Source of the DNA: Candidatus Bipolaricaulota bacterium
Lineage (GTDB): Bacteria > Bipolaricaulota > Bipolaricaulia > UBA7950 > UBA9294
Assembly: GCA_030606565.1 (NCBI GenBank)
Contig: JAUWGE010000001.1
Coordinates: 4,478-68,477, forward strand
DNA: 64,000 nucleotides
Reading direction: 5' to 3'
In this document: in pieces, positions 2,832 through 30,636 of the stretch
Numbering within the stretch: the first letter of the stretch is position 1
How the letters are laid out: every line of letters starts with the position of its first letter
Made by a program: the position numbers and the translations under genes
Notes under the pieces: generated by a model
Database searches by the model: none
What the model was told of the DNA's origin: nothing
The model's input: only the letters and a program-made list of their open reading frames with translations

Positions 2832-3785
2832 TTGTCCGGCCCTACAGTGTTTAGTCAGAATCGAATTTGCCAGATGCTTCATATCCGCTATCCTATTCTT
2901 TTGGGAGGGATGGCACATGTGTCGCGCGCGCCGCTAGTTGCTGCCGTCTCCAACGCGGGCGGCTTGGGGATCATTGGATCTGGCGGGATGCCGCCCGATA
3001 TCTTGGTCGAGCAGATCGCGCAGGTGCGGAAGAAGACCGACCGACCGTTTGGCGTGAACCTGATGTTGATGGACCCAAACATCGAAGAGCAGGTCGAGGT
3101 CGTCCTGCGTGGGGACGTCCCGATGGTCTCGACCGGGGCGGGAAATCCGGCGAAGTACATGGACAGGTTGAAAGAAGCCGGGATCAGAGTCTTTCCGGTC
3201 ATCCCGGCGACGGCACTCGCCCGCAGAATGGAGCGGGCCGGAGCCGACGGTATCATCGCTGAGGGGACGGAATCCGGTGGGCACGTCGGAGAGGTGACGA
3301 CGATCGTCCTCGTGCCGCAGGTAGTTGATGTTGTGTCCGTACCGGTCGTCGCCGCCGGTGGGATCGCCGACGGCCGCGGTCTTGCGGCCGTCCTTGCCCT
3401 TGGTGCAGAGGGAGTGCAGATGGGGACCAGGTTCCTTGCCTCGGCCGAAGCACCGGTTCATTCGAATTACAAACAGGCGCTCTTGAAGGCAAGCGATCGC
3501 TCGACGATCGTCACCGGGCGCAGCCTCGGCGCGCCGGTGCGCACGATCGTCAACCGGATGACCAAACAGTTCGCCCGCTATGAACAGGAGCATCGCTCGT
3601 TTGAGGAATTCGAGAGCTTGGCCGTGGGTGGGCTTCGTCGTGCTGTCTACGATGGTGACACAGAGGATGGTTCCTTGATGGCCGGGCAGATTGTTGGTCT
3701 GATCGATGAAATCAAACCGGTGGAGATGATCATCGAAGAGGTAGTGCGAACAGCCACAGAATTACTGCAGGAGGGGAAGCTTTAA
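2832..3785 (+). CDS. fabK: Nitronate monooxygenase / enoyl-ACP reductase II (FabK) family FMN oxidoreductase
   Basis: The product shows the typical NMO/FabK fold motifs: ...MLHIRYPILLGGMAHVSRAPLVAAVSNAGGLGIIG..., ...AEGTESGGHVGE..., ...PVVAAGGIADGRG. A TTG start sits 5 nt after AGGAGG. Confidence 0.8.
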   Translation: MSGPTVFSQNRICQMLHIRYPILLGGMAHVSRAPLVAAVSNAGGLGIIGSGGMPPDILVEQIAQVRKKTDRPFGVNLMLMDPNIEEQVEVVLRGDVPMVSTGAGNPAKYMDRLKEAGIRVFPVIPATALARRMERAGADGIIAEGTESGGHVGEVTTIVLVPQVVDVVSVPVVAAGGIADGRGLAAVLALGAEGVQMGTRFLASAEAPVHSNYKQALLKASDRSTIVTGRSLGAPVRTIVNRMTKQFARYEQEHRSFEEFESLAVGGLRRAVYDGDTEDGSLMAGQIVGLIDEIKPVEMIIEEVVRTATELLQEGKL

Positions 3786-3789
3786 TTGG

Positions 3790-6141
3790 ATGGCAGTTGC
3801 TAACGACAGGACGCTGCGTGACCTGGAGTACGATCGGCTAAAACACCTGCTCAAGGAGTTTGCCTCTTCTTCCCTTGGAGAAGAGGCGATCGATGCTCTT
3901 ACTCCGCTTGCCGACCAACCAGCGATTGAGCGGGGGATGGCCGAGGTGAAAGAAGCGATCAGCTTTCTGGAGCAGCGAGGGCACTTCTCGCTTGGTGGCG
4001 TGCACGACCTTGCTCCTCTCCTTGACCATGCCAAGGAACGGACCCTCCTCGATGGTGAGGAGTTTCTCCTCGTCCTTCAAACGATCGAGAGCACCCACCA
4101 AATTCGGGCCACGCTTACCTCGAAAGAGGATTTACCCCTCCTTCGACGGTTCGCCGAGCGCCTCTCTGAAGCAAGTGAACTTGCAAAAAGGATCACTCAA
4201 GCGATCGACGAAACTGGTGAGATCCGTGACGACGCCTCGCCCACCCTTAAGCAATTGATGGGCAGGCGGCGAACCCTTGAGGAGCGGATCGAGAAAAAGC
4301 TACACGCGTTGATCGAGCGTAATCCTGAACTGATCAGCGAAGCCGTGGTGACCCGCCGCACCGGACGCCTAGTGATTCCGATTAAGAGTGGAGCAACGGG
4401 GGCGATGGAGTTCGTGGTACACGACCGCTCGGCAACCGGTCAGACCCTGTACGCCGAGCCGACCTCGCTTGTGGCGGAGAACAACGCAGTCGTTGGGATA
4501 GAAAGCGAGATTCGCAAGGAGAGGCTGCGCATCCTGCGCGAGTTGACAGATGCGTTCAAACAAGCGGAGCCTGCATTCCTGCGTGACCGGATGATCTTGG
4601 CTCACCTTGATTCCCTTTTTGCTCGTGCCGCCTACGCGGCTGCCCACCACTGTGCGTTTCCTCACCTCTCAGATGTTATTGTGCTAAGGGATGCTCGTCA
4701 TCCCCTGCTTCCGGAGAAGAGGGTTGTGCCGATCTCACTCTCCCTGGGCGGCCATACCCGGATGACCGTAATCACCGGCCCCAACACCGGCGGGAAGACG
4801 GTGACCTTAAAGACGATTGGGCTGTTGACGCTGATGACCCAGTCGGTCATTCCCATCCCCGCCTCCCCGGACTCCGAGCTTGCGATCGCTGCAAAAGTGC
4901 GAAGTGACATTGGCGATGAGCAGTCGATCGAGCAGAACCTCTCTACATTCTCTTCCCACATGGGAAACATAGTCTCTATCCTTAAAGAAGCGGATGCCGA
5001 CTCGTTGATACTGCTCGATGAACTCGGTGCCGGGACCGACCCGCAGGAAGGTGCGGCACTCGGGCTGGCGATCCTTGAGGACCTGTTATCAAGCGAGGCG
5101 CTGGTTGCCGCCTCCACCCATCTCACCCCGCTCAAGTACTTCGCCATTCGCCATCCTACGGTAAAGACCGCCTCTATGGAGTTTGATGTAGAGACCCTCT
5201 CGCCGACGTTTAGGGTGGTTGAAGGGATACCCGGCCGGAGCAACGCCTTTGTCATCGCCCGCGGGCTCGGTCTCTCTGCCCCCTTGGTCAAGCGCGCCCG
5301 CTCGTTCCTCTCGGAAGGGGAGATCAACGCTGAAGACATCATCGAGGAGTTGCAGCGCGAACGCCAGACGATGATTAACTATCGAAGAAAGGCGGAACAG
5401 AAACTCTCCGAAGCCAAGCAGTTGGAAGAGTCCTACCAGGAGCGACTCGCCGCTTTTGAGAGCGCAAAAGAGGAAGAAATCTCCTCAAGGCTGAAGGAGT
5501 TGGAAGCCTTCCTCCGTCGTGGCCAAGAGAGGGTGGAGCACCTTCTTGCCGAGATGAATGCCAGTCCCACCGTGGAAGGGGCAAAGGGTGCCTATCGCGA
5601 ACTTGCCGGGCTGCGGAGGGAGCTTTCTCAGCAGGAAGAGTTGTTCTCACGCAGGGAGGAAGAAGAGGGGATCTCCTCGGCGGAGCTTAAGGTCGGATGC
5701 CTCGTCCACGTACGCAGCCTGGATGCCGACGGACGCATCGTACAGCTCGCCCAGGGGGGGAGAGTAACGGTCGATCTTGAGGGAATCCGGGTGCTCACCG
5801 ACCGCTTCGATTTAGCACCGCCTAGACAGGAGCACAAGGTCAAGTCCCACTCCCCGCTGCCCTTGCAGCCGTCCGTTGGGAGGGTTAGTTTGCAGTTAAA
5901 CGTGCGCGGGATGACGGTCACTGAGGCACTGCGCGAGGTTGAATCCTACCTCGACCGGCTTCTTTTAGCCGATGTCAGGCAGGCGAGCATACTGCACGGG
6001 AAGGGGACCGGTGCGCTGCAGGATGCTGTGCGCAACTACCTTTCTTCTTGTTCATTCGTCGGATCCTGCGGCCCGGCGCCGCCGCGGGAGGGTGGGGAAG
6101 GGGTGACCCTCTTCGAACTCATGGGTGAGGAGAAGGATTGA
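3790..6141 (+). CDS. mutS2: Endonuclease MutS2 (MutS domain plus C-terminal Smr domain)
   Basis: 783 aa. Walker A GPNTGGKTVTLKTIGLL is present. The C-terminal Smr domain is LNVRGMTVTEALREVESYLDRLLLADVRQASILHGKGTGAL. Confidence 0.9.
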   Translation: MAVANDRTLRDLEYDRLKHLLKEFASSSLGEEAIDALTPLADQPAIERGMAEVKEAISFLEQRGHFSLGGVHDLAPLLDHAKERTLLDGEEFLLVLQTIESTHQIRATLTSKEDLPLLRRFAERLSEASELAKRITQAIDETGEIRDDASPTLKQLMGRRRTLEERIEKKLHALIERNPELISEAVVTRRTGRLVIPIKSGATGAMEFVVHDRSATGQTLYAEPTSLVAENNAVVGIESEIRKERLRILRELTDAFKQAEPAFLRDRMILAHLDSLFARAAYAAAHHCAFPHLSDVIVLRDARHPLLPEKRVVPISLSLGGHTRMTVITGPNTGGKTVTLKTIGLLTLMTQSVIPIPASPDSELAIAAKVRSDIGDEQSIEQNLSTFSSHMGNIVSILKEADADSLILLDELGAGTDPQEGAALGLAILEDLLSSEALVAASTHLTPLKYFAIRHPTVKTASMEFDVETLSPTFRVVEGIPGRSNAFVIARGLGLSAPLVKRARSFLSEGEINAEDIIEELQRERQTMINYRRKAEQKLSEAKQLEESYQERLAAFESAKEEEISSRLKELEAFLRRGQERVEHLLAEMNASPTVEGAKGAYRELAGLRRELSQQEELFSRREEEEGISSAELKVGCLVHVRSLDADGRIVQLAQGGRVTVDLEGIRVLTDRFDLAPPRQEHKVKSHSPLPLQPSVGRVSLQLNVRGMTVTEALREVESYLDRLLLADVRQASILHGKGTGALQDAVRNYLSSCSFVGSCGPAPPREGGEGVTLFELMGEEKD

Positions 6142-6203
6142 AAGGATTAAGCCTTTTCGTTAACATGAATCGCTAAGTCTACCGAATAGGGAGAGTTTCA
6201 AGC

Positions 6204-6512
6204 GTGAAGATTACCAAGGTAGAGATCCGGCCGATGCGCAGCGAGGGAAACCTAAAGGCGTTTTGTTCGGTCGTCTTCGACGATGTGTTCATCGTCCATA
6301 GTGTGAAGGTCATTCAGGGGAAGGAAAGCCTGTTTGTCGCCATGCCCAGCCGGGAGATCAAAAACGGCGAGTTCCGCGACACAGCACACCCAATTGACAA
6401 CGACTTCCGCTTAAAGATGGAACAGATCATCATTGATAAGTACAAGGAGGTTGTAAAAGAGGAGCAGGCGGTACTATCTGCGGATATTCCCACTGAGGAT
6501 CTGACATTTTAG
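6204..6512 (+). CDS. spoVG: Septation protein SpoVG
   Basis: MKITKVEIRPMRSEGNLKAFCSVVFDDVFIVHSVKVIQGKESLFVAMPSRE... is a near-canonical SpoVG. GTG start with an upstream GGGAGAG. Confidence 0.85.
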   Translation: MKITKVEIRPMRSEGNLKAFCSVVFDDVFIVHSVKVIQGKESLFVAMPSREIKNGEFRDTAHPIDNDFRLKMEQIIIDKYKEVVKEEQAVLSADIPTEDLTF

Positions 6513-6580
6513 GGCGTAGCCAAGCGGTAAGGCAACGGCCTTTGGAGCCGTGATCGGAGGTTCGAATCCTCCCGCCCTAA
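6510..6580 (+). tRNA. tRNA-Gln (anticodon TTG)
   Basis: A manual cloverleaf was built. Acceptor TAGGGCG/CGCCCTA gives a U1:A72 pair as in bacterial tRNA-Gln. U8 and A9 are present. The anticodon stem is ACGGC/GCCGT with loop CTTTGGA. The T-arm is GGAGG-TTCGAAT-CCTCC. The 5' end overlaps the spoVG stop codon. Confidence 0.65.
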
Positions 6581-6589
6581 CACTTAAGT

Positions 6590-7282
6590 ATGAAGGAAAG
6601 ACCGATTGAGGAACTGGCGAGGAAGCTTCGCTTGAAAATTGCGCCGGAGGCGCTGGAGCGGGCCTTCCTCCACAGTTCGTATGTGAACGAGCGTGGCGAC
6701 CCACGCGGCTCGAACGAGCGGCTGGAGTTCCTGGGCGATGCGGTAATAGGCCTTGCCGTGACGAACTACCTGTGCAAACAGTATCCGGATGCGGATGAAG
6801 GCCGTCTTACCAAGGCGAAGTCGATCGCTGTCAGCCGACCGATGCTGTCCGAGAAGGCAGAAGGGCTAGGCTTCTCTGCTTACCTTCGTTTGGGGAAGGG
6901 AGAGGAAGCAAACAATGGCCGCAAGCGAGCCTCCAATTTGGGGAACGCCTTTGAGGCCCTGGTTGCGGTTATCTTTCTCGAGCGCGGATTTTCATACGCA
7001 GCGAAGTTCGTCGTGCGTTACCTTAAAGAGGATATCGAGCGGTTCCTCGCTGAACAGTCAGCGACAGGGGACTATAAAAGCCTATTACAGGAGGCGGCAC
7101 AGCGACTGTTCGACCGTCGGCCAGCATACGTCGTTACCGAAGCAACGGGAAAGGAGCACCGCAAGAAGTTCACGGTGAAGGTCGCTGTGGCCGGGCACCG
7201 TGGAATCGGCCGCGGTCGCAGTAAGAAGGAGGCTGAGCAGGCAGCGGCGAAACAGTTATACTTGATATTGGAGGAGTTCTAA
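6590..7282 (+). CDS. rnc: Ribonuclease III
   Basis: The RNase III signature ERLEFLGDAV is present, and a C-terminal dsRBD follows. Confidence 0.9.
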   Translation: MKERPIEELARKLRLKIAPEALERAFLHSSYVNERGDPRGSNERLEFLGDAVIGLAVTNYLCKQYPDADEGRLTKAKSIAVSRPMLSEKAEGLGFSAYLRLGKGEEANNGRKRASNLGNAFEALVAVIFLERGFSYAAKFVVRYLKEDIERFLAEQSATGDYKSLLQEAAQRLFDRRPAYVVTEATGKEHRKKFTVKVAVAGHRGIGRGRSKKEAEQAAAKQLYLILEEF

Positions 7283-7287
7283 GAAAC

Positions 7288-7361
7288 GCGCCCGTAGCTC
7301 AGTTGGATAGAGCAGCGGTTTCCTAAACCGCAGGTCGGAGGTTCGAGTCCTCTCGGGCGTA
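7288..7361 (+). tRNA. tRNA-Arg (anticodon CCT)
   Basis: GCGCCCGTAGCTCAGTTGGATAGAGCAGCGGTTTCCTAAACCGCAGGTCGGAGGTTCGAGTCCTCTCGGGCGTA. The anticodon loop TTCCTAA gives CCT. The minus-strand ORF 7279..7524 is a translation of this tRNA. Confidence 0.8.
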
Positions 7362-7531
7362 CAGGTTTCATCTCGTTTAAGCTTCTGTAATCCAGAACGC
7401 GCTCCGGCCTATCTTGACCTTTAATCATGCTGTTTTTGTGTAGCGCAGCGCTAGCCCCGTTCCTGCACGCGATAGCGCCTCTTCTAAGACGATTTTTTAC
7501 TACAGCCGTGACACCAGCACCCACTTTTGGT

Positions 7532-7548
7532 GTATATTATAATATTAC
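7532..7548 (+). promoter_or_regulatory. AT-rich -10-like element (TATATTATAATATTA) directly upstream of the Cys-rich protein gene
   Basis: A conspicuous AT island in a GC-rich genome. TATAAT lies at 7541-7546. No clear -35 was found. Confidence 0.2.
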
Positions 7549-7553
7549 TCGAC

Positions 7554-8147
7554 ATGGAGGTGAGAGATGTGAAAAAGCGGTTCGTGTGGCCAGGCGTTGT
7601 TCTGGTGGGGCTCCTACTTATCGCAGCTGTGATGGGCGCAGCATCGACCTCGTCAAGCGTTTGGAGTGGGCGATACAGGGTGGGAGAGACAGTGTTATTT
7701 AAGGTGGAAGACCAGAAGGTCTTCTGCTGGTGCTGCTGCTGTCAGCCCGCCTGCCCCGAGACGCAGGTGTTGGGTTGGCATATTGCCGACTCTAGTGGTG
7801 GGATCGTCTATTCTGTGGTGAATGACGCACCGGTCCCGGCATCCATCTGGCAGGGAAGTTGGTCACAGATCAATTCCCTGGGAGCATCCGTTGCTGCAGG
7901 CTACTACATACTCTGCGTGGACACGTCGGTGGGAACCCTCTCGCGGTGTCTTTACTTGTATGACCCGTGCTGCGGTTGCTGCTGGGGCTGTTGCGGCTGG
8001 AGCTGTTGTGGATGGAGCCGCTGCGGATGCGGACCACAGTCAACGATCACCAGCTGTTGCTCTCGGACAAGCTTGGTATGGATTGTGGAGGAAGCACCCT
8101 GTTGTCACCTCTTCTTCCGGTGGCCGTGTTGTTCTAGCTGCCCGTAG
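7554..8147 (+). CDS. Cysteine-rich secreted protein (31 Cys in ~193 aa) with signal peptide
   Basis: The likely true start is GTG 7569, 8 nt after GGAGG, giving MKKRFVWPGVVLVGLLLIAAVMGAAS. Cys clusters include CWCCCCQPACPE, CCGCCWGCCGWSCCGWSRCGCG, SCCS and APCCHLFFRWPCCSSCP. Confidence 0.6.
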   Translation: MEVRDVKKRFVWPGVVLVGLLLIAAVMGAASTSSSVWSGRYRVGETVLFKVEDQKVFCWCCCCQPACPETQVLGWHIADSSGGIVYSVVNDAPVPASIWQGSWSQINSLGASVAAGYYILCVDTSVGTLSRCLYLYDPCCGCCWGCCGWSCCGWSRCGCGPQSTITSCCSRTSLVWIVEEAPCCHLFFRWPCCSSCP

Positions 8148-8236
8148 AGGACTTGACGATCGATCTTGCAGGAAGGTGCGTGAGAAAAAGAGTAAAGCGA
8201 CGTTAAACGCGGATATAGACTATCAAGGGGGTACTT

Positions 8237-11200
8237 GTGAATAGGATTAGGGTATTTTGGGTGTTGTTGGGGGTCATGCTGCTCGCACTGACAAGCGGGA
8301 TGGCCAAGGAGGAGGTCACACCGGTCCTTCCCGATGTCGTTGCTATGGCACAGGCGGCCGCCCAGGCAGCCGCGCTAGCACAAGCCCAGGCTGAGGCGAT
8401 TGCCACCGAAGCCCAGGAGCTCTTGGACTCTCTAGATGTTGGGCAGCTGTTGAGCCAAGCCAGCGCAGCAAGCGCTGACGCGCAGGCCTCTGCCCTGGCG
8501 ATCGCAGACGCTGAGTCACGGGCACTAGCGATGGCCGACGCGTTTGCGATAGCGTGTGCCCAGGCTCAAGCCCAGGCCAAGGCAAGCGTGCAAGCGTGCG
8601 TAAGCGCGGCAGCTCGTGCCGACGCAGCGGCAGCGGCTTTCGCATTAGCCTGCGCAGGTGCTGAAGCCCACACTGGAGCATCAGTGAGTGCATGTGCCGC
8701 AGCGAAAGCCAAAGCCGCGGCGGCGATTGAAGAGGTAATGACAGCAATTGCCTGCGCCCAGGCCGAGGCTGAGGCAAGTGCGCGTGCGTGCGCTGTGGTG
8801 GCCGCTGAGGTTGATGCCTATGCATTTGCGGTTGCTGAGGCGCTGGCCGAAGCAGTGGCGATTGCGAATGCCCAGGCGATCGCAGCAAGCCTCGCGGTGG
8901 CGACGGCCGAGGCTGAAGCCAAGGCGGTCGCCGAGGTGTCGGCCTCGGCCCAGTCGCATGCCCTGGCAGTGTCCGCAGCTCTAGCACGGGCAGAGGCCCA
9001 CGCGCGAAGTGCGTCCACCGCATCCGGCCAGGCTCGAGCAACGACCGAACTCACTACGCAGAGGATAAAACAGTCCGTACCATGTGGCACAGTTGTTGCC
9101 GAGGTGGGTGGAGTCATCGAGGCAATCGCTGATGTCGTGGCAATGGCCAGCGCTTCCGCGGACGCATCCGCGCAGGCGGCAGCCATCGCAGCAGCCTCAG
9201 CCAGTGCATCGGCAGAGGCCGCGGCTTCGGCTTATGCTCGAGCAAAGGCCGAAGCGGAAGCTGCTGCATTTGCGTTCGCCCACGCTCAAGCCTCAGCGCT
9301 AGCCGTTGCTGAGGCGCACGCTCTTGCCATAGCGGAAGCCGAAGCGGCAGCGAGTGCGATCGCCGTAGCGTATGCCGAAGCGCAAGCCCAAGCCAATGCA
9401 GTGGCGACCGCTCTTGCGCAAGCCAGGGCGGCTGCCCACGCCGCAGCAACGGCGATCGCTGGATCGTACAGTACCGCATTCGCGGAGGCCGACGCGGTCG
9501 CTACAGCGTGTGCACAAGCGACGGCAGCAGCCAGGGCAATGGCTCGAGCAATCGCCACAGCAAGGGCCCAAGCCGAAGCTACCGCTTCAGCAGCGGCCGA
9601 TGCCTGTGCGGTAGCAACAGCCAGTGCACAAGCCATGGCAAGCGCAATTGCGCAGGCTGCGGCGCAGGCATCGGCCAGTGCGGCAGCGGCGGCATCAGCG
9701 TATGCGGAGGCGCGAAGTGAAGCAAGCGCCATGGCCGGTGCGGTCGCCATAGCTGTCGCCGAGGTACAGGCTCAAGCTGCGGCCTGCGCAACCGCAGCGG
9801 CGCAGGCACAGACGGTAGCTACAGCGTGTGTTCAGGCAGCCGCCCAGGCCTCTGCATCTGCCGAGGCCAGCGCATCGTCAGTCGGAACCGGTGAAGCCTA
9901 CGCGCAGGCCTTCGCAGCCGCGGTGGCGATAGCCTCTGCCGATGTCTTCGCCCACGCACAAACCGCTGCACAGGCGGCAGCACAAGCGCAGGCGGCAGCA
10001 CAAGCGTGCGCATCCGCGTTCGCCGAGGCACAGACGGCAGCAGCAGCCGGAGTGCAAGCGGTAGCCGAAGCCGTCGCCGAGGCGCAGGCAGCGGCCCACG
10101 TGTGTGCGTCCGCGCAAGCTCAAGCCGAAGCCGCAGCGTTTGCAGGTGCAGAGGCAATCGCTGAAGCATCTGCGCAAGCACAGGCTGCAGCGCTGGCTGC
10201 AGCGCTGGCCCAGGCGGACGCTGAAGCCCAGGTGGCTGTAGGTGTCCTGGCTATTGCCGAAGCGCAGGCCGAGGCGGAAGCCTCCGCGCATGCGGCGGCA
10301 CTTGCACTGGCTGCAGCGGAAGCGCACGTCACCGTAGGGGTAGAAGCAGCTACAACGGCGTTTGCGGATGCGGCCGCGGCCGCGTATGCCGCAGCTGGAG
10401 CATTGGCAATAGCGCATGCTGAGGCGTACGCCGCAGCGGGGGCTCTGGCGATTGCCCAAGCAGATGCCTATGCCGCAGCTCACGCCTGCGCAATAGCGTT
10501 TGCCGCCGCAGAAGCATCGGCCGAGGCCGTCGCTGATGCCCAGGTGAGAGCATCCGCGTCAGCGGAGACGGCCGCAGCAGCTCTAGCCCTCGCCTACGCC
10601 ACAGCTGAAGCGGCAGCGAGTGCAGCCACGTCAGCGTCCGCTTCTGTGAGGGTGGTCCCCAGTATCGAGGCCTCGGTCAAGGCGTTTATCGATCCAGAGT
10701 GCCTCCAGCCTGTGTGCGAAGAATACGAGCCTTGTCCGCCTTGCCCGCCTTGTCCGGAGCCGGGCGAGCCGACGTATCCCGAGGGGTGTCCCGAGCCGGA
10801 GGATCAGGCTTGGAAGTTCGGTGAGGTAAAGGCCGGTGTGTTCAGCATGAAACAAGCGACGCTGCCACCCGATATCCGGGCGAGCTTCGAGCCGTTCAAT
10901 ATCGTCAATAGCTACGAGATCACGAACACCTTGCCTTCAGGCACGATGACGCTTGACACAAGCACCTGGACCTGGACCGTGACCTTCACCGGCGCCCTTC
11001 CTGCAGGCACCTACCATGTCCTCTACGGGTTCATCGATGCCAGGCAGTGCCCGGTCGGAACCTTGGATGTGTGGATCAACGCTTTTGGCAGAGTGACGCC
11101 GGGAGTCACACCGACTCCTGAACCAGAAGAGGCCTGCGTAAGGATAAGTTCATTCTGTGTGCCGCAGCAGCGGATCTCTCTACTCACTCTTCTTACAGGT

Positions 11201-11884
11201 GGACTCACGGAGTTCTCCACCACCATGACGATCAACAACGTGCGATACTCAACGGAGTTTGAATACTGTGGGGAAGAGGGGACGCGGTTTATAGTGTGCA
11301 CACCGCAGGGCGTGTATGCCGCGGACCAAAGCCAACGCGTTTTCGCATACTGGGCAGCGTATGACGAGACGGAGCATTCTTGGGAACCGTTCTCCGAATC
11401 GAACTGCACAGCTGTGACGATTGAGGACGGCGCGTGGATCGCCGCGTTCTACCAGTGCGAGACGAGTTCTGGCTATACCCCACCACCTCCGTCGGAAGAG
11501 GTCTGCGTCAGGGTGAGCGCGTTCTACCTGCCCCCCGAGGCCCCACCTATAACTACGCCGACTTACAAGCCAGGAACGCCGCAGTATCTCGCGGGCCCGG
11601 TGCCGTTCCAGACAACATTCACCAAAGATGACAAATACAAGATCCTAACGGGATCAGAGCAGTGCGGAGAGCCCGGTGAGGGCTTCAAGATCTGTGCTCA
11701 CCAACAGGTTTGGACCAGCACGGAGGAGCAGCTCGTCTTCGCCTACTGGGCAAAGTACAACGAGGAGAGCGAAACATGGACGCCAATCTCTGAAGCCACC
11801 ACGTGCATTCGAGTCACGACGCGCACAGGCGCTTGGCTCGGCGCGTTCTACAAGCTTGTAAGCCCACAGACGGAAAACTACTAG
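8237..11884 (+). CDS. Giant secreted (Ala-X)n dipeptide-repeat protein with Cys/Pro linker and internally duplicated C-terminal domain
   Basis: GTG start after AGGGGGT. The signal peptide is MNRIRVFWVLLGVMLLALTSGMA. About 800 residues have Ala at every second position with the phase maintained, where X is E/Q/S/V/T/C/H/Y/F/L/I/K/R. The linker CPPCPPCPEPGEPTYPEGCPEPE follows. The C-terminal ~400 aa contain two ~115-aa repeats: ...CGEEGTRFIVC..VFAYWAAYDE..W.P.SE..C..VT...GAW.AAFY and ...CGEPGEGFKICAH..VFAYWAKYNE..W.P.SE..C..VT...GAW.GAFY. Confidence 0.75.
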   Translation: MNRIRVFWVLLGVMLLALTSGMAKEEVTPVLPDVVAMAQAAAQAAALAQAQAEAIATEAQELLDSLDVGQLLSQASAASADAQASALAIADAESRALAMADAFAIACAQAQAQAKASVQACVSAAARADAAAAAFALACAGAEAHTGASVSACAAAKAKAAAAIEEVMTAIACAQAEAEASARACAVVAAEVDAYAFAVAEALAEAVAIANAQAIAASLAVATAEAEAKAVAEVSASAQSHALAVSAALARAEAHARSASTASGQARATTELTTQRIKQSVPCGTVVAEVGGVIEAIADVVAMASASADASAQAAAIAAASASASAEAAASAYARAKAEAEAAAFAFAHAQASALAVAEAHALAIAEAEAAASAIAVAYAEAQAQANAVATALAQARAAAHAAATAIAGSYSTAFAEADAVATACAQATAAARAMARAIATARAQAEATASAAADACAVATASAQAMASAIAQAAAQASASAAAAASAYAEARSEASAMAGAVAIAVAEVQAQAAACATAAAQAQTVATACVQAAAQASASAEASASSVGTGEAYAQAFAAAVAIASADVFAHAQTAAQAAAQAQAAAQACASAFAEAQTAAAAGVQAVAEAVAEAQAAAHVCASAQAQAEAAAFAGAEAIAEASAQAQAAALAAALAQADAEAQVAVGVLAIAEAQAEAEASAHAAALALAAAEAHVTVGVEAATTAFADAAAAAYAAAGALAIAHAEAYAAAGALAIAQADAYAAAHACAIAFAAAEASAEAVADAQVRASASAETAAAALALAYATAEAAASAATSASASVRVVPSIEASVKAFIDPECLQPVCEEYEPCPPCPPCPEPGEPTYPEGCPEPEDQAWKFGEVKAGVFSMKQATLPPDIRASFEPFNIVNSYEITNTLPSGTMTLDTSTWTWTVTFTGALPAGTYHVLYGFIDARQCPVGTLDVWINAFGRVTPGVTPTPEPEEACVRISSFCVPQQRISLLTLLTGGLTEFSTTMTINNVRYSTEFEYCGEEGTRFIVCTPQGVYAADQSQRVFAYWAAYDETEHSWEPFSESNCTAVTIEDGAWIAAFYQCETSSGYTPPPPSEEVCVRVSAFYLPPEAPPITTPTYKPGTPQYLAGPVPFQTTFTKDDKYKILTGSEQCGEPGEGFKICAHQQVWTSTEEQLVFAYWAKYNEESETWTPISEATTCIRVTTRTGAWLGAFYKLVSPQTENY
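8339..10660 (+). repeat. Coding (GCN-NNN)n hexanucleotide periodicity encoding the (Ala-X)n tract
   Basis: Alternating GCN codons over ~2.3 kb. They generate long spurious ORFs in the other five frames (Arg/Pro-rich, Ala/Cys-rich). Confidence 0.8.
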
Positions 11885-11896
11885 CTCCAACTATCC

Positions 11897-11927
11897 GGGG
11901 GATGGCGAAAGTCGTCCCCCGTTTTTC
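11897..11927 (+). terminator. Rho-independent terminator after the giant repeat-protein gene
   Basis: GGGGGATGGCGAAAGTCGTCCCCC is a hairpin with a GAAA-type loop. It is followed by GTTTTTC. Confidence 0.6.
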
Positions 11928-11972: not shown

Positions 11973-12054
11973 GCGAGGGTGGCGGAATTGGCAGACGCGC
12001 TAGCCTTAGGAGCTAGTGCCTTAGGGCGTGCGGGTTCGAGTCCCGCCCTTCGCA
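11973..12054 (+). tRNA. tRNA-Leu (anticodon TAG)
   Basis: Acceptor GCGAGGG/CCTTCGC. Anticodon arm CTAGC-CTTAGGA-GCTAG. A long variable arm and T-arm GCGGG-TTCGAGT-CCCGC are present. Confidence 0.8.
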
Positions 12055-12096
12055 GTTGTGGTTACTCGCATTTCCCGCTATAATGATTAAGCCTTT

Positions 12097-12168
12097 GCGG
12101 GAATAGCTCAGAGGTAGAGCACTGCCTTGCCAAGGCAGGGGTCGCGGGTTCAAATCCCGTTTCCCGCT
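12097..12168 (+). tRNA. tRNA-Gly (anticodon GCC)
   Basis: GCGGGAATAGCTCAGAGGTAGAGCACTGCCTTGCCAAGGCAGGGGTCGCGGGTTCAAATCCCGTTTCCCGCT. Confidence 0.85.
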
Positions 12169-12199
12169 CTTTAAAAAAGCTGGGAAGTCAAGGATGTTT

Positions 12200-12283
12200 G
12201 CCGGGGTGGCGGAATAGGCAGACGCAAGGGACTTAAAATCCCTTGAGGGTTTCCTCGTGCGGGTTCGAGTCCCGCTCCCGGCA
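12200..12283 (+). tRNA. tRNA-Leu (anticodon TAA)
   Basis: Acceptor GCCGGGG/TCCCGGC. Anticodon arm AGGGA-CTTAAAA-TCCCT. A long variable arm is present. Confidence 0.8.
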
Positions 12284-12292
12284 CAAGAGATC

Positions 12293-12367
12293 GCGGGGTG
12301 GAGCAATTAGGAAGCTCGTCGGGCTCATAACCCGGAGGTTGCTGGTTCGAATCCGGCCCCCGCAACC
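12293..12367 (+). tRNA. Initiator tRNA-fMet (anticodon CAT), CCA encoded
   Basis: A C1:A72 mismatch (CGCGGGG / CCCCGCA) is present. The anticodon stem has three consecutive G:C pairs with loop CTCATAA. The 3' end is ...ACCA. Confidence 0.75.
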
Positions 12368-12372
12368 AGTCA

Positions 12373-12447
12373 GGCGGCGTAGCTCAACCGGTTTAGAGCG
12401 CTCGGCTCATATCCGAGAGGTTCGGGGTTCGAGTCCCTGCGCCGCTA
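12373..12447 (+). tRNA. Elongator tRNA-Met (anticodon CAT) or tRNA-Ile2 (lysidine)
   Basis: GGCGGCGTAGCTCAACCGGTTTAGAGCGCTCGGCTCATATCCGAGAGGTTCGGGGTTCGAGTCCCTGCGCCGCTA. Confidence 0.7.
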
Positions 12448-12464
12448 GTTGTTTCATTAAATAA

Positions 12465-12538
12465 GGGGGCGTAGCTCTAATCGGGAGAGCGCTGCGTTCG
12501 CATCGCAGAGGTTGGCGGTTCGAATCCGCTCGCCTCCA
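12465..12538 (+). tRNA. tRNA-Ala (anticodon CGC)
   Basis: The G3:U70 identity pair is present. Anticodon arm CTGCG-TTCGCAT-CGCAG. T-loop TTCGAAT. Confidence 0.8.
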
Positions 12539-22820: not shown

Positions 22821-25310
22821 TCACCGCAAGATGACCAACTTTTCTAGCCCCGTAGTGACCCATTCGTCCCCGATCTTCACCTGGGCCCGGTAGAGATACA
22901 CGCCGTTACTCAGGTATTCACCTAGCGTGTCATGGGTGAACCAGGGCAGGACGGGCATGTCGGTCTCGCCCTGCCACACGAGCCGCCCAGCAAGGTCGTA
23001 GATCTCAACCCGCAGACCCTCGACATTACAGTGGCAAACGCCTTGCACCCAGAACGTCATTGCAAGCTCGGTCGTCACTGGGTTCGGCATGTTTACCACC
23101 CTCAGGGTGGCAAGCTCATAGGAAGACGCCTTTGGCATCGGAGGAAGATCAGCAGGCACCACAAGAGCCTTGGGAGCCATCGGCGCGAACGTCGCACTTA
23201 CCGGTGTACCAGAAGCGTAGTTAAGCTTCAGGCTGAGGCCAGAGACCTCCGCCCGCACCCAGTAACCATACCACGGATCGAGCGTAGACGGTGTGTTGTA
23301 ATCACCGTCGGTTGCCTTGTAACCGTAGATGTCGTCGCGGACCCAACCGGCGGCTGCCGCATCGGCCCAGGACTTGGTCTGGGTTCCGCAACACACGGAA
23401 CTCCGTATCACCTGGATTGCGCTCTTCGGGTAGCTCCATGGCGCGCTGATCTGGTGCCAGCCTGCGGTCGAGATGTCGAGCGTGACATCGGTTGTGACCT
23501 GATCACCTCTATCGGTGACGCTCTTGCTCGCTGGCAGGTACACCCAGTAGCCTTCAGCGGGTTCGATCATGGTGACCATGTCGTACTCACCCGTTGCTGG
23601 GTTCCAGCGGTAGGCGGCAGTGCCGTAAAGGTTAGACGATGATCCGCCATTCAGCGGGACGGAGGCCATGTACCAACCAGGGGCTGCACCATAGGTGTGG
23701 GTATTTCCGGGCGTTATGCTCAAGGGCAGGTAAAGGCGTCCATGACCGTACAGGTTGTCTTTTCCCAAAGTCCCTATATCTACAGCGTTTGATTCCAACC
23801 ACTCTCGCACGCCGGTCGCACTCCAACTCTGATACTTCGACCATAGTAAGGCCGCCGCGCCAGCCACCTGTGGCGAGGCGGCAGAAGTCCCGTAGAAAGC
23901 TGTCTCATAGGACATTCCTGACACCCCATCCGCGCCACAGATATCCGGCTTGGTGATGGAAGCGGCGTGTTGACTATTGTTGGTGGGGCCTTGTGAGCTG
24001 AACGGCTCCTGTGGGCCGGTCTGCCAATCGTGCCAATCGATCACTCCCACAGTGAATACAAACGGGGCGTTCGCCGGAGCGGCGATGGAGCTGCACTCTA
24101 CAGAATACTCTAGAGGAAGATCGTAAGGCTTGCAGAAAAGCTCCATTCGCGGGTGTGCCGGTGCACTATATACCTGTATCGCCACCCCGTAGTTATCGGA
24201 AGCCGGCGCTGTGTACTCGATGATCTCGCTCGGCTCCTGCGTACCACCCTGATAATTCTCCGACGAAGCAACAATATCCCCCACCCCGTTTACCAAAAAC
24301 AGATCATAGTCTTGATCGCTACTTGGCCAGCCGTCCCAGGTGAGATACAGCCCGATCGTCTCGCCCATCTCGAGGTAGAAGCCGTTCTCCTCATCCAAAG
24401 GGGCAAGATCCAACCACCCATCAGCATCGGCATCATGCCAGTCGCCCTCCCAGTGCCCGCCGGCCGCCGAGTTTCCCGCCGCATTCACCCACAGGATGCC
24501 ACTATCCACCGCTTGGGCGACGATCTCCGGGATCAATCCTGTCCCATCATAGAAGTTGGTGTTGAACCACCCCATCGAGTGGGTGATCACATTTACACCA
24601 TGAGAAATGGCATCGGAGACGGCATTGGCGAGGTCCACATCGCTATCGATCTTCATCAAGAGAAGCTCCGCCGCTGGGGCCATATCGTGGACGATCTCCG
24701 CACAGGCCGTCCCGTGCACGCTGTCCGTCTCCAGTCCCTCACCGGTGTAGTCATGAGTGAAGGTGACATGCGCAAGCTCCCCCGCTGACAACGCCTCGGT
24801 GAGGCCGTCAAATCCTCCATCGATCACGGCTACACGGATCCCCTGGCCACGGTAGCCCGCTTGCTGCCAAGCTTGCGCCCCACTCAGTTCTACCCCTTCT
24901 GAAACAACAAGAGGGACCGGACGATACGGCCGCCGCACAAATCTCACTCCGGGAAGACGGGCAAGTTCTATCAGACATACAGCGGGAATCTCTACCTCCA
25001 GCATATTCAACGCATCGGCCCGCGAAAGGACCTCACCCCCCAATCGCATGATTTCACTCGTAGAAAGAGGGCCATCTGTCGCCACCACCACACGAACATG
25101 ACCCTCTCGCCACATCATCCCCAACCCCCTAGCAAGCGTTTCTGCCTGAGTGAGTGTCTGCTGAGCCTCTTCTGCCAGCTGTTGCAGAGCCGTCTCCAGG
25201 GTGGGGATCATCTCCTCGGGAGGGATCGGCTTCTCTTGTTCACTGACACCCTGCAGTCCCGCACCCACAGCGACAACAAGGATCAGCACATACATAAGAA
25301 TCCTACGCAT
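22821..25310 (-). CDS. Subtilisin-like S8 peptidase with C-terminal conserved cassette and T9SS/FlgD-like C-terminal sorting domain
   Basis: The catalytic triad motifs are VAVIDGGFDG (Asp), HGTACAEIVHDMAP (His) and GTSAASPQVAGAAALL (Ser). The C-terminal ~200 aa are ~75% identical to the tail of 40605..43943. The terminal segment is ...IYDLAGRLVW...GVYLYRAQV...KLVILR. Confidence 0.85.
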   Translation of the reverse strand: MRRILMYVLILVVAVGAGLQGVSEQEKPIPPEEMIPTLETALQQLAEEAQQTLTQAETLARGLGMMWREGHVRVVVATDGPLSTSEIMRLGGEVLSRADALNMLEVEIPAVCLIELARLPGVRFVRRPYRPVPLVVSEGVELSGAQAWQQAGYRGQGIRVAVIDGGFDGLTEALSAGELAHVTFTHDYTGEGLETDSVHGTACAEIVHDMAPAAELLLMKIDSDVDLANAVSDAISHGVNVITHSMGWFNTNFYDGTGLIPEIVAQAVDSGILWVNAAGNSAAGGHWEGDWHDADADGWLDLAPLDEENGFYLEMGETIGLYLTWDGWPSSDQDYDLFLVNGVGDIVASSENYQGGTQEPSEIIEYTAPASDNYGVAIQVYSAPAHPRMELFCKPYDLPLEYSVECSSIAAPANAPFVFTVGVIDWHDWQTGPQEPFSSQGPTNNSQHAASITKPDICGADGVSGMSYETAFYGTSAASPQVAGAAALLWSKYQSWSATGVREWLESNAVDIGTLGKDNLYGHGRLYLPLSITPGNTHTYGAAPGWYMASVPLNGGSSSNLYGTAAYRWNPATGEYDMVTMIEPAEGYWVYLPASKSVTDRGDQVTTDVTLDISTAGWHQISAPWSYPKSAIQVIRSSVCCGTQTKSWADAAAAGWVRDDIYGYKATDGDYNTPSTLDPWYGYWVRAEVSGLSLKLNYASGTPVSATFAPMAPKALVVPADLPPMPKASSYELATLRVVNMPNPVTTELAMTFWVQGVCHCNVEGLRVEIYDLAGRLVWQGETDMPVLPWFTHDTLGEYLSNGVYLYRAQVKIGDEWVTTGLEKLVILR

Positions 25311-25361: not shown

Positions 25362-25946
25362 GTGAGACAACTTCTCGCTACCATTACCAAGAGAAAGGAG
25401 GAGAGGACCCTGACGCGCAGAACGAAGTGGGCGGTAATCGGGTTTGTAGGACTTCTCTTGGTGTGTGGGGCCACTGCTGCAACGCTTCTATTCCTGAACG
25501 CGAATAAGCAGCCGCCCGTCGGCACCAAAATAAGAGAGACTGCTCCTTCCTTCACGTTGGAGGATCTCGACGGGGTGCCTGTCTCCCTTTCCGACTTTTA
25601 CGGCCGCGTGGTTATCCTGGAATTCTGGCAGACTTCTTGCCCGGATTGTCGTAAAGCTATGCCTCACTTAAAAACCTTATATGCCCGCTACAAGGACAAG
25701 GGACTGGTCTGGTTAGGGGTAAACCTTGACCACGACCCCGAGGTCGTAAAAGCGTACCTTAAAGACAGCGGATTTCTCGACCAGATCACCCTGTGGGGGT
25801 CCTTTTCCGCCGCGATGGATATTGTTGATCTCTTCGATGTAGATCTCGTGCCGCGCGCGCTTGTTATCGATCGCCGCGGGATCATCCGCTACATGGGAAC
25901 CTATCCAGATGAGCCAGAAGCCTCCGACATTGAACCCTGGTTGTAA
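25362..25946 (+). CDS. TlpA/ResA-like thiol-disulfide oxidoreductase (thioredoxin fold, membrane anchored)
   Basis: An N-terminal TM segment is present. A CxxC motif lies in VILEFWQTSCPDCRKAMP. Confidence 0.8.
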   Translation: MRQLLATITKRKEERTLTRRTKWAVIGFVGLLLVCGATAATLLFLNANKQPPVGTKIRETAPSFTLEDLDGVPVSLSDFYGRVVILEFWQTSCPDCRKAMPHLKTLYARYKDKGLVWLGVNLDHDPEVVKAYLKDSGFLDQITLWGSFSAAMDIVDLFDVDLVPRALVIDRRGIIRYMGTYPDEPEASDIEPWL

Positions 25947-27592: not shown

Positions 27593-28189
27593 TCAAAACA
27601 CCTCTTCTAAATCGATGGAAAGCCCAGCAAGAAGGGGGGATTTAAGAGGTGCCTTTTCTTTGCAGGCATAAAGGGCAACCTGGGAAAAGCCCTGCTCCTG
27701 CAGCTTTAACACCTCAACCGTCTTTGTGGCAGGATCGACCAGCCAGTACTCCTTGACACCATGGCGGGCATAGAGGGCCTTTTTGTAGGTGCGGTCGCGC
27801 TTTGCTGTTGCCTCAGAGAGAATCTCGATCACCAGACCAGGGGCACCGCGGATCCCTTCCTCGGCGATAATATCGGCCTGTTCCTTTCCGACAAACAAGA
27901 TATCAGGCTGGAGGACGGTGTCTTCGCTGAGGATGACGTCAAGAGGAGCATCGTAAACAAAACCTAAGTCGTGCTGTTTGACGAACCCGCGCAAAATAAA
28001 CTCCAGGTTTCCTGAGATGCGTTGGTGATACTCATTCGGTGATGGAACCATGACTAACTCCCCCTCAAAAAGCTCATAGCGCTCCCGCTCGGACTCCGGT
28101 GCGTTTCGATAGTCTTCGTAGGTAAACTTGATTCTAGTAGCCGGCTTTTCCATCGGATCCACCTCCATCGAGTATTCTAGAACGTCCAT
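27593..28189 (-). CDS. Uma2-family (DUF820) putative restriction-endonuclease-like protein
   Basis: ...YELFEGELVMVPSPNEYHQRISGNLEFILRGFVKQHDLGFVYDAPLDVIL...PDILFV... is the Uma2 pattern. Confidence 0.75.
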   Translation of the reverse strand: MDVLEYSMEVDPMEKPATRIKFTYEDYRNAPESERERYELFEGELVMVPSPNEYHQRISGNLEFILRGFVKQHDLGFVYDAPLDVILSEDTVLQPDILFVGKEQADIIAEEGIRGAPGLVIEILSEATAKRDRTYKKALYARHGVKEYWLVDPATKTVEVLKLQEQGFSQVALYACKEKAPLKSPLLAGLSIDLEEVF

Positions 28190-28325
28190 GGTCCAAAGTC
28201 CAAAAAGCGGTGATGAGTTAAGGGTGATGAGAGAAGAAGAGCGGGATTAAGGAGTATGGATTAGGGATTCAAGGGGCGAAGGCAGCGATGAGGGATAGGT
28301 GAATCGTGGATGGTAGACTGTGAAT

Positions 28326-28403
28326 GGTGAATGGTCCAGAGTCCACAGTCCAGAGCCGGTGATAAATTGTGAATTGCGAATGATGGAGAGCGGGTGTGTG
28401 CTG
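28326..28403. repeat. 78-bp interspersed repeat built of 7-nt periodic units (copy A)
   Basis: GTGAATG GTCCAGA GTCCACA GTCCAGA GCCGGTG ATAAATT GTGAATT GCGAATG ATGGAGA GCGGGTG ... It is ~94% identical to 32310..32387. Confidence 0.7.
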
Positions 28404-28455
28404 AAAGCTGACGGCTGATAGCTGAAATGCTGATAGCTTGACCGTTGATTGCTGG

Positions 28456-28866
28456 TCATAGCAGGAAGCTTCTCGTCCGAAGCGGTACAAAACGACAGAT
28501 CTCCTCAAAGTGGTTGTCCGCATGCCAGAGCAGAAGATCCTTGGCAAGGGCAGCCTGGGCGATCAGTAGATCCGGAAGGGGGATAGGAAGCCCCTCTTTG
28601 CGCAGCGTATACCCCAGGCGAGCCGCCTCTTTCCAGACACCTTCGTCGATGGGAATATCTGGAACTACACCGAGGTGTTCCAGCAGTTTGTCAAAACTTT
28701 TCTCATCCCTTGAACCGATCAGGATCTCCGCTCGTACAACCCAACACGAGAAGACGCGCCCTTTGGTAAGCGCCTTCTTCACCGAGGCCTTTAGTTCCTC
28801 CCGCCCCTCCGGTCGGAGATAATGGACCCAAACCGAGGTATCGATAAACACGGGCTCTTCGCCCAT
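28456..28866 (-). CDS. vapC: PIN-domain toxin VapC
   Basis: MGEEPVFIDTSVWVHYLR...D...IAQAAL is the PIN pattern. The start overlaps the vapB stop. Confidence 0.75.
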   Translation of the reverse strand: MGEEPVFIDTSVWVHYLRPEGREELKASVKKALTKGRVFSCWVVRAEILIGSRDEKSFDKLLEHLGVVPDIPIDEGVWKEAARLGYTLRKEGLPIPLPDLLIAQAALAKDLLLWHADNHFEEICRFVPLRTRSFLL

Positions 28867-30626: not shown

Positions 30627-30636
30627 GGGCAGGCTG

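Follow-up and report, generated by a model that had tools for sequence, protein, structure and literature searches.

What does a protein fold into when alanine occupies every second position over nearly 800 residues? We address this question for a two-gene locus in a 64,000-nt stretch of a Candidatus Bipolaricaulota genome (contig JAUWGE010000001.1, positions 4,478 to 68,477; hereafter, the window). An intact 3648-nt open reading frame (ORF) at 8237..11884 (+), which starts with GTG and alongside which the remaining frames are broken, encodes a 1215-aa product with a long (Ala-X)n tract; a gene for a small Cys-rich protein precedes it in the same orientation. We call the tract the rod and the 1215-aa product the rod protein. 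A first-pass annotation had read the period-2 pattern as the hallmark of beta-strand or silk-like material, not to be expected of a coiled coil. Our analysis points the other way. On the sequence statistics below, we favor, with moderate confidence, the reading that residues 36-802 form a very long alpha-helical coiled coil in a surface stalk or fibre protein, with chains linked through Cys. If so, it would represent an unannotated family of surface rods, coiled coils whose sequence rule has no precedent. The sequence rule, the purifying selection, a 3.53-residue seam, the pairing of the genes, and the fold class of the C-terminal domains are shown by the data; helicity, oligomeric state, Cys chemistry, location in the cell, and the role of the partner are inferred.

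The alternation itself is real. Alanine accounts for 405 of the 1215 residues of the whole protein, and within residues 27-809, 320 of 374 Ala fall on even positions, compared with 192.6 ± 4.3 (maximum 216) in 20,000 shuffles. Sliding 10-residue windows over the rod returned 24 phased blocks and 0 phase switches. The spectral check suggested in the first-pass annotation gave one dominant peak in the Ala indicator, at period 2.0, and the example peptide quoted there is present in the 8237..11884 product. That the phase is never broken holds for this clade but not beyond it, as the distant homologues L009, P0059, and P0060 switch once or twice. The Ala lattice is occupied by 320 Ala, 24 Val, 12 Ser, 9 Thr, and 5 Gly; Glu, Asp, and Pro are nearly never found on it, though each is one mutation from Ala. 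At the X positions, Ala, Gln, Glu, and Ser are commonest, followed by Val, Leu, Ile, and Thr and then by Asp, Arg, Cys, Gly, Phe, His, and Tyr, with no Pro and only 2 Asn (among 388 X positions, 48 are Glu, 15 Asp, 14 Arg, and 5 Lys). Over the whole 783-residue tract there are 17 Gly, 4 Pro, and 2 Asn, together 2.9%. Identity autocorrelation at 32 residues, the spacing of two V-x-V-G-V motifs, reaches z = 6.5. A role as substrate of a processive X-Ala dipeptidyl peptidase, as for promelittin, was considered and rejected, since distant homologues switch phase and the breaks lack Ala where it would be required.

The residues between the alanines obey a second rule. In the hydrophobicity spectrum, further peaks appear at 3.54 and 15.8 residues, together with period-2 aliases at 4.6 and 2.29. 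The Rayleigh periodicity of Leu, Ile, Val, Phe, Met, Tyr, Trp, and Cys peaks at 3.52-3.56 residues in the window protein, in L004, L009, L011, L013, and L014, and in P0054, P0055, P0058, and P0059. When non-Ala residues were permuted over non-Ala sites, 10 of 2000 trials attained the value observed for the window protein, and 0 of 2000 did so for each of L009, P0054, and P0059. In homologues that flip parity, the X positions sample both parities, so that 3.53 can be separated from its 4.6 alias, and 3.53 was the stronger in each (L014, 0.487 vs 0.231; L009, 0.384 vs 0.256; L013, 0.414 vs 0.246). The phase of this seam is coherent across the entire ~780 residues. Sectors drawn for L014 place large hydrophobics at 0.22-0.27 in two adjacent heptad-like sectors and at 0.03-0.05 opposite, charged and polar residues at 0.11-0.22 on the seam side versus 0.40 opposite, and Ala at 0.42-0.55 all round.

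The cysteines follow the same seam. The two core sectors hold 8 of the 9 rod Cys in L014 and 11 of 14 in the window protein, and the phase concentration of rod Cys at 3.53 is R = 0.78-0.88. The regular Cys spacing at X positions noted in the first-pass annotation is borne out: the spacings of 14, 18, 32, 46, 60, 74, and 128 residues correspond to near-integer counts of 3.53-residue turns, and a C-x2-C-x3-C motif is present in L009 and L014. Identity autocorrelation peaks at lags 14, 32, 46, 60, and 64, and the peaks are not confined to multiples of 32. We rejected an origin of the 3.53 signal solely in a 32-residue internal duplication, because lags 14, 46, and 60 also peak and P0054 shows no peak at 32.

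The rod thus has two features of coiled coils, namely a sustained hydrophobic periodicity of ~3.5 residues and long stretches free of Pro and Gly (those free of helix breakers reach ~130 residues). It does not have a core of large aliphatics at a/d positions: the core sectors are ~50% Ala, with 20-27% large hydrophobics and most of the Cys. AlphaFold2 (AF2), run on the rod with nine sequences, returned ten long helices, interrupted at the insert of residues 281-296, with a mean predicted local distance difference test score (pLDDT) of 44 and a predicted template modelling score (pTM) of 0.27. The modelling check proposed earlier therefore speaks against beta structure in being all-helical, though at this low confidence. 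Because the non-Ala residues carry a conserved 3.5-residue periodicity, and given the alias test and the mere 23 Gly, Pro, and Asn in 783 residues, the step from period-2 Ala to beta or silk is not supported.

The proposed structure can be set out as follows. After cleavage of the signal peptide, residues 36-802 would fold as a helical rod of about 114 nm if continuous; a probable hinge at residues 281-296 could split it into arms of ~33 and ~75 nm. Each face of the helix would be ~50% Ala, with Val, Ile, Leu, Phe, Tyr, and nearly all Cys on the one 3.53-residue seam. Since 7 is odd, each heptad position alternates between Ala and X in successive heptads, so that the expected order of core layers is X, A, A, X, a pattern repeating every 14 residues. 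Such a core would be regular, of small radius, and rich in alanine, an ordered version of 'Alacoil' and bee-silk cores. We envisage a parallel, in-register homo-oligomer in which the seam Cys, the C-x4-C pair at the rod terminus, and the CPPCPPCP segment of the following linker face their twins, so that disulfides could staple the chains or, in anoxic surroundings, metal ions shared between them could do so.

Parallel, in-register stapling is suggested by those three Cys elements taken together. C822 and C827 of the C-x4-C are invariant in all nine sequences of our alignment A2. The Cys/Pro linker at residues 831-855, already described in the first-pass annotation, varies among homologues and is Pro/Thr-rich in L009, L013, and L014; its CPPCPPCP segment resembles an antibody hinge. 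Nearby genes for thioredoxin-fold proteins, either secreted or anchored in the membrane, offer hints of such chemistry: an extracytoplasmic, TlpA-like one (STCPYC; L016 9639-10232) starts 3 nt past the stop of the distant rod gene P0060, a second (CPFC; L015 3230-4123 (-)) lies 1.9 kb from P0054, and a TlpA-like gene (SCPDC) occurs within the window at 25362..25946 (+), 13.5 kb away. A disulfide-linked or metal-binding extracellular fibre, as first proposed, is still the best functional guess, stripped of its beta or silk structure.

Several observations weigh against the coiled-coil stalk. The AF2 confidence is very low, and the argument for helicity is therefore made from sequence statistics. 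For the window protein itself the strength of the seam is low (R = 0.20) and hydrophobics occur on all faces, and hydrophobic autocorrelation is ~0 at lag 4, where a simple a/d core predicts a positive value. Val is the top substitute on the Ala lattice and the V-x-V-G-V motifs favor beta structure, and the short (Ala-X)n peptides EAK16 and RADA16 are classic beta-sheet formers (PMC2387071, PMC8216384). Disulfides in a strict anaerobe are doubtful, and P0059 and P0060 have almost no rod Cys, so stapling would be lineage-specific and not essential to the fold. No SLH domain, LPXTG motif, lipobox, or beta-barrel anchor was detected in the window rod protein (Pfam and NCBIfam, E ≤ 1). Finally, L005, L007, and L012 have the Cys-rich gene but no rod gene, and the distant rod genes P0054 and P0060 have no Cys-rich gene upstream.

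The alternative that survives best, although we consider it unlikely, keeps the helices but arranges them differently: they would fold back into an intramolecular antiparallel bundle, as in Alacoil, spectrin, or apolipophorin, or pack laterally in two dimensions to form a lattice, for instance that of an S-layer or a sheath. Helices of ~60-130 residues would then run between Gly-containing breaks, with Ala permitting close contacts on all faces. The ~50% Ala on every face fits contacts all round the helix, hydrophobics lie on all faces of the window protein, and the conserved breaks (HTG, VPCG..GG, GSYST, GTGE, and VxVGV) could be turns. Antiparallel pairs also let Ala layers face large residues (the Alacoil concept, via PMC12284834), and the bee-silk tetramer is antiparallel (PMC12284834). 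However, the seam keeps its phase across the breaks for ~780 residues, which is expected of a continuous rod and not required of hairpins; the breaks number merely ~10 per 770 residues; and the invariant C-x4-C and CPPCP suggest parallel chains.

Less probable still is that the tract consists of beta-strands with zipped all-Ala faces, in the manner of silk, an EAK16/RADA16 tape, or a flat beta-solenoid, possibly after an alpha-to-beta switch. The perfect period-2 alternation, with 320 of 374 Ala in phase, is what silk or cross-beta structure would show, and EAK16, (AEAEAKAK)2, and RADA16 form very stable beta-sheet fibres and can pass from this state to alpha-helix and back (PMC2387071, PMC8216384). 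Where Ala is replaced on its lattice, it is mainly by Val, Thr, and Ser, V-x-V-G-V motifs are present, the related P0075 contains (Asp-hydrophobic)n stretches, and AF2 is unsure of the helix. Against this, the 2.9% of Gly, Pro, and Asn leaves nothing from which to build the 50-100 turns that a beta meander or solenoid of this length would need, and the X positions are rich in Glu, Gln, Ala, and Leu. A 16-residue rung should appear at lag 16, where neither identity nor hydrophobicity gives a signal, whereas lags 14 and 18 do. The significant and conserved 3.53 seam of hydrophobics and Cys on the variable face would be meaningless in a beta-sheet.

We regard as very improbable that the tract is a structurally undefined low-complexity spacer, either disordered or an isolated helix like TolA domain II or an ER/K helix. 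Low pLDDT is compatible with it, as are HMMER cross-matches to many unrelated proteins that bear simple (A-E/K/R/Q)n tracts, but the evolutionary record is not. The same gene is found in at least eight independent assemblies, with intact orthologues in Bipolaricaulota: L004 is intact (1228 aa; record labelled 'uncultured Thermotogae'), L003 carries the label of a Candidatus Bipolaricaulota metagenome-assembled genome (MAG), L009, L011, L013, and L014 are further intact orthologues, and L001 (Ga0074242_12037173) is an orthologue from a JGI metagenome. Relative to L004 and L001, the rod is 91-92% identical on the Ala lattice and 72-76% at the X positions, although synonymous divergence is saturated (dS 0.8-1.2). 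The ratio of nonsynonymous to synonymous substitution rates (dN/dS) of the rod is 0.10 versus L004 and 0.13 versus L001, a tighter constraint than on the globular C-terminus (0.23-0.36). The tract aligns column by column with P0054, P0055-58, and P0059/60 (A2), and the indels that could be attributed among orthologues amount to two gaps, of 2 residues in L004 and of 32 in L009. Shared landmarks include LDSLDVGQLL, VPCGxVVAEVxG, GTGEAY, the two VxVGV motifs 32 residues apart, and TSVxVVPxIETSVxAFIDPxCLQPxC, and the insert at residues 281-296 is conserved in P0054, P0059/P0060, and L009. Column-by-column alignment and shared landmarks therefore indicate a folded domain family, not a drifting spacer. 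Furthermore, Cys and hydrophobics are ordered on the seam, and the X positions are not dominated by Glu, Lys, and Arg as in ER/K or TolA-like helices; 19 Lys and Arg and 63 acidic residues among 388 X positions rule out an ER/K single helix. The 32 residues absent from the L009 rod amount to one VxVGV-to-VxVGV super-repeat, or 9 helical turns. In L001, the frame changes just past the rod, giving ORFs at 3342-5807, 5949-6254, and 6181-7041; this broken orthologue reflects either a sequencing error or a pseudogene.

An assembly artefact or non-coding simple repeat, which GC-rich, compositionally biased DNA on a 6-nt lattice might have suggested, is refuted to our satisfaction by the recurrence in independent assemblies, the strong codon-level selection signal, an ORF unbroken for 3648 nt while other frames are interrupted, the use of all four Ala codons on the lattice (97/94/79/50), and the weakness and shortness of DNA tandem repeats (best, 42 nt × 2.4 copies at 75%).

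Returning to the coiled-coil stalk, what flanks the rod is consistent with a place at the cell surface. Both products of the locus were said to be exported, and Sec-type signal peptides are indeed read from both sequences; rod homologues have equivalent n/h/c signal regions ending in ..A. The cap motif P[VI]LPD[IV]V between signal peptide and rod is kept in L004, L009, L011, L013, L014, and P0054. At the other end, the duplication seen in the first-pass annotation is real (38% identity, E = 1e-25), and both copies have a CnaB/transthyretin-like beta-sandwich, the fold of CnaB-type adhesins and pilins. They do not match Pfam Cna_B, and the protein ends in ..KLVSPQTENY without LPXTG. The preceding domain (residues 856-952) appears Ig-like and occurs in one to five copies in homologues, with up to five in P0054; it has no Pfam match, and AF2 pLDDT is low there. 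Ig-like and CnaB-type domains are common in the stalks and tips of bacterial adhesins. Relatives swap such C-terminal modules: when seven homologues and the L009 orthologue were searched against Pfam, the sole matches were BACON_2/HYDIN Ig domains, one set in P0059 and one in P0060, and P0073, with a comparable complex Ala-X tract, bears an SLH domain at its C-terminal end. Two candidate assignments were rejected, a lipoprotein anchor because no Cys follows the signal peptide and an InlB B-repeat identity of the C-terminal domains because Pfam support was not found.

The Bipolaricaulota envelope is atypical and possibly Thermotoga-like, and in one closed genome of the phylum no adhesins or appendages were recognised (PMC6092417). 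Because module swapping is typical of stalk and adhesin architectures, and in view of this envelope picture, the rod protein may well be a long surface stalk, spacer, or fibre. Elsewhere in the window, at 22821-25310 (-), 34062-38030 (-), 40605-43943 (-), and 45207-48374 (-), an S8 peptidase and three large proteins are encoded, two of the latter with beta-helix domains and one of those two also with a PKD domain. All four end in a FlgD_ig/Por_Secre_tail/CHU_C-like domain, identified by eye or from weak Pfam matches. This FlgD_ig-like tail domain, unexpected outside Bacteroidota, may be a phylum-specific surface-attachment tag.

The partner encoded upstream is a 192-aa protein with 25 Cys and 11 Trp, in which a conserved beta domain follows the signal peptide and precedes a tail rich in Cys and Trp (alignment A3). 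The first-pass description of a signal-peptide protein of ~190 aa was accurate in length but not in composition, as Cys makes up 13% of the precursor and about 15% of the mature chain (an estimate), not 16%. Its start was also revised: GTG 7569, behind GGAGGTG, is likelier than ATG 7554, and a publicly available gene call has the same 192 aa (100% identity). We found 48 homologues, none with a Pfam domain and all annotated as 'hypothetical protein'; the one with a named source comes from a Candidatus Acetothermia MAG. FlgD_ig matched 3 of 21 homologues (best E = 8.6e-5) and CHU_C 1 of 21, with no match for the window protein itself, and a PDB profile search with the family gave nothing significant. 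A domain of this kind also closes several large secreted proteins encoded elsewhere in the window. As for a metallothionein-like identity, the 25 Cys are accompanied by 11 Trp, and no family matched. In P0009, P0020, and P0052, a 30-40-residue (Ala-X)n-like insertion lies within the beta domain (e.g., SAAAAQASAQAAASATATAQASS); the Ala-X motif therefore also occurs in the partner family.

The Cys-rich gene lies directly 5' of the rod gene in 7 of the 10 loci examined (the window, L001, L004, L009, L011, L013, and L014), and the flanks of paired loci vary (transposase/GatB, CorA, NikR-ZnuA, ProRS, or a tRNA cluster). The order kept amid varied flanks, the lack of a terminator-like hairpin between the genes, and the presence of one after them support the two-gene unit proposed earlier. 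In L005 (8001-9250) and L007 (8001-9240), synteny is the same and the six-tRNA cluster directly follows the Cys-rich gene, so that the rod gene, missing there, is in effect naturally polymorphic for presence or absence at this position; the order there is Cys-rich gene, Leu-Gly-Leu-Met-Met-Ala tRNAs, GT4, methyltransferases, and PKD proteins. Linkage is thus strong within the clade and not obligatory. Directly 5' of the pair in L011 (5004-5794) are Transposase_mut fragments and a tRNA-synthetase remnant, which hint that the pair is mobile as a unit.

The pair would form an operon for exported cell-envelope or surface proteins of Candidatus Bipolaricaulota (Acetothermia/OP1), in which the Cys-rich partner might, with low confidence, be an anchoring or cross-linking accessory. 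Keratin and the high-sulfur keratin-associated proteins (KAPs) provide a conceptual analogy to the rod and its partner, with no homology. Carried further, the analogy would suggest a two-component bacterial material without a described counterpart, in which (Ala-X)n rods, bistable in the manner of EAK16 and exported as Ala-core coiled coils, lock or, on heat or stress, convert into Ala-zipper beta-sheets and the 25-Cys partner cross-links them through seam and hinge Cys, by disulfides or metal-thiolate bridges, into a keratin/KAP-like sheath or matrix on Bipolaricaulota cells; we give this idea little credence.

The features of the locus are listed in the table. The tRNA genes said to bracket it were found on both sides. 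Of the promoter-like island and terminator ascribed to it, the AT-rich dip is real (GC falls to 0.48 over 7250-7549, against 0.56-0.69 in the surroundings), and so is the terminator hairpin, but a scan for sigma-70 consensus sites upstream of the pair scored none.

Features of the two-gene locus, in window coordinates
Feature	Position	Strand	Remarks
Putative promoter region, AT-rich	7430..7552	+	-10-like TATAAT at 7538-7543, read from sequence
tRNA-Arg	7288-7362		
RBS (ribosome-binding site) GGAGGTG, Cys-rich gene	7557..7563	+	5 nt before GTG 7569, read from sequence
Cys-rich secreted protein, 192 aa	7569..8147	+	In-frame ATG alternative at 7554
RBS AAGGGGG, rod gene	8225..8231	+	5 nt before GTG 8237, read from sequence
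Signal peptide, residues 1-23, MNRIRVFWVLLGVMLLALTSGMA then KEE	8237..8305	+	Cleavage site inferred
N-terminal cap, residues 24-35 (..TPVLPDVV..)	8306..8341	+	Conserved in homologues
(Ala-X)n rod, residues 36-802	8342..10642	+	Ala lattice and 3.53-residue hydrophobic/Cys seam
Non-Ala-X insert VPCGTVVAEVGGVIEA, residues 281-296, possible hinge	9077..9124	+	Conserved; AF2 helix break
Two V-x-V-G-V motifs, residues 666-670 and 698-702	10232..10342	+	Val on Ala lattice
Rod terminus with C-x4-C (C822, C827): SVRVVPSIEASVKAFIDPECLQPVCEEY	10643..10726	+	Invariant Cys pair
Cys/Pro hinge-like linker EPCPPCPPCPEPGEPTYPEGCPEPE, residues 831-855	10727..10801	+	Includes CPPCPPCP
First C-terminal beta domain, residues 856-952	10802..11092	+	W-x-FGE ... 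LPSG ... G-x-Y
CnaB/transthyretin-like beta-sandwich copy 1, residues 967-1075	11135..11461	+	
CnaB/transthyretin-like beta-sandwich copy 2, residues 1090-1208	11504..11860	+	38% identical to copy 1
Terminator-like hairpin, 11 pairs (8 G-C) and T run	11896..11921	+	12 nt past stop
Six tRNAs	11973-12538		

How rare is such a protein? Neither the rod protein nor the Cys-rich protein matched Pfam or NCBIfam at E ≤ 1, and nothing meaningful came from searching PDB sequences with the rod or with profiles of the C-terminus and of the Cys-rich family, the sole match below E = 0.1 being the (QA)n tract of TCERG1; the family is undescribed, as the first-pass annotation had supposed. An exact look-up of the window rod protein in public assemblies found no record, and literature searches, whether on coiled coils with alternating alanine or on alanine-rich sequences in Acetothermia, yielded nothing relevant. 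When 1.84 billion representative proteins were scanned exhaustively with HMMER, 113 matched at E ≤ 1e-3, 13 of them at ≤ 1e-30. The weaker matches are for the most part just further tracts with alternating Ala, and two types can be told apart. One comprises simple tandem repeats of the (A-E/K/R/Q)n type, 100-440 residues long, in unrelated proteins (kinases, S-layer-homology proteins). The other comprises a few complex Ala-X tracts with Cys and hydrophobics in surface proteins, namely the Acidobacteriota SLH protein P0073, P0075 from Phycisphaerae in the Planctomycetota, and P0066 from a JGI metagenome. P0066 has the rod terminus in common with the window protein (hhalign probability 98.4%). 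Given these comparable tracts, period-2 Ala is not unique; what is unique is a conserved, complex tract of ~770 residues.

Among these relatives, P0119 contains more than 250 residues of perfect AEAEAKAK repeats (residues 256-514), in effect a poly-EAK16, and P0095 contains 439 residues of (A-K/E/D)n (residues 687-1125) without any Ala on the X lattice. P0066, P0073, and P0075 combine an N-terminal 'YGDAPD...GxxEDY' domain, which we take to be GEVED-like, with a complex Ala-X tract bearing Cys clusters and with SLH or beta domains. In P0075, the (Asp-hydrophobic)n stretches are in phase with the Ala-X lattice.

By analogy, the rod would probably work most like Ala-rich coiled-coil silks and long envelope stalks, though its sequence makes it a member of neither. 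The silks of bees, ants, and hornets (AmelF1-4), and the 'Alacoil', are likewise fibrous, secreted, and helical, with an Ala-rich core and a small superhelical radius; in bee silk, alanine-rich coiled-coil cores form small-radius bundles with weak or ambiguous heptad predictions (PMC12284834). Unlike the rod, bee silk consists of ~210-residue rods in an antiparallel heterotetramer, is unrelated in sequence, has Ala enriched in the core but not fixed on a two-residue lattice, and has no Cys staples or beta domains. Among envelope stalks, the Deinococcus SlpA/OmpM-type proteins, Staphylothermus tetrabrachion, and Sulfolobus SlaB are also exported, tens-of-nm rods that keep envelope layers apart or present domains and are combined with Ig-like domains, and Thermotoga Omp-alpha is a further long coiled-coil stalk. 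Such stalks are found in deep-branching or thermophilic prokaryotes and show periodic discontinuities such as beta-layers (10.1101/2022.05.18.492506; 10.64898/2026.08.21.746120). In contrast to SlpA, OmpM, and Omp-alpha, the window protein lacks an SLH domain, a beta-barrel, and a C-terminal membrane anchor, and its C-terminus is a soluble beta-sandwich. The rod is 3-4 times as long as that of SlpA, and the (Ala-X)n rule is not seen in envelope stalks.

Other systems share a single feature with the rod. Gram-positive pilins and MSCRAMM adhesins have the CnaB/transthyretin-like fold of its C-terminus, whereas the rod protein has no LPXTG or sortase context. The simple (A-E/K/R/Q)n tracts (P0095, P0119, and P0067, among others) and the human TCERG1 (QA)n tract have period-2 Ala, over 100-440 residues in the former, but are built from short units in tandem, in which X is charged or Gln, and show no Cys/hydrophobic seam or conserved landmarks; TolA-domain-II-like linkers are bacterial tracts of this simple type. 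EAK16 (from yeast zuotin) and RADA16 also carry Ala at every second residue and are known for alpha/beta ambivalence (PMC2387071, PMC8216384). They are 16-residue synthetic peptides with only charged X residues that form beta-sheet tapes, whereas the X positions of the rod are a conserved, complex mix including hydrophobics and Cys, with 3.53 order over 770 residues.

We know of no natural precedent for period-2 and period-3.53 rules acting together over ~770 residues under strong purifying selection. If the rod is a coiled coil, this dual rule forces the core layers to alternate between Ala/Ala and large/large, and an unusually thin rod of about 110 nm is predicted, with a radius modulated every 14 residues. 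It would then add a point to the known design space of coiled coils, and protein materials might be modelled on it. The rod also tests why (Ala-X)n peptides pick beta-sheet while a long (Ala-X)n protein would pick helix. In biological terms, the rod protein is a candidate for a major component of the cell envelope in Bipolaricaulota, an uncultured, deep-branching phylum.

Two minor observations concern the surrounding DNA. Antisense ORFs of 90-232 aa run across 8343-10483 (-), e.g., 9286..9750 (-), and several give Ala-X-like peptides. We rejected them as genes and regard them as short by-products of the GCN lattice, because a GCN-NNN lattice yields such translations mechanically. Further along, 27593-31449 contains small genes that, judged by eye from their translations, resemble toxin-antitoxin or mobile-defence modules, including a Uma2-like endonuclease, a PIN-domain protein, an AbrB-like protein, a RelE/Phd-like pair, and a DUF433-like protein.

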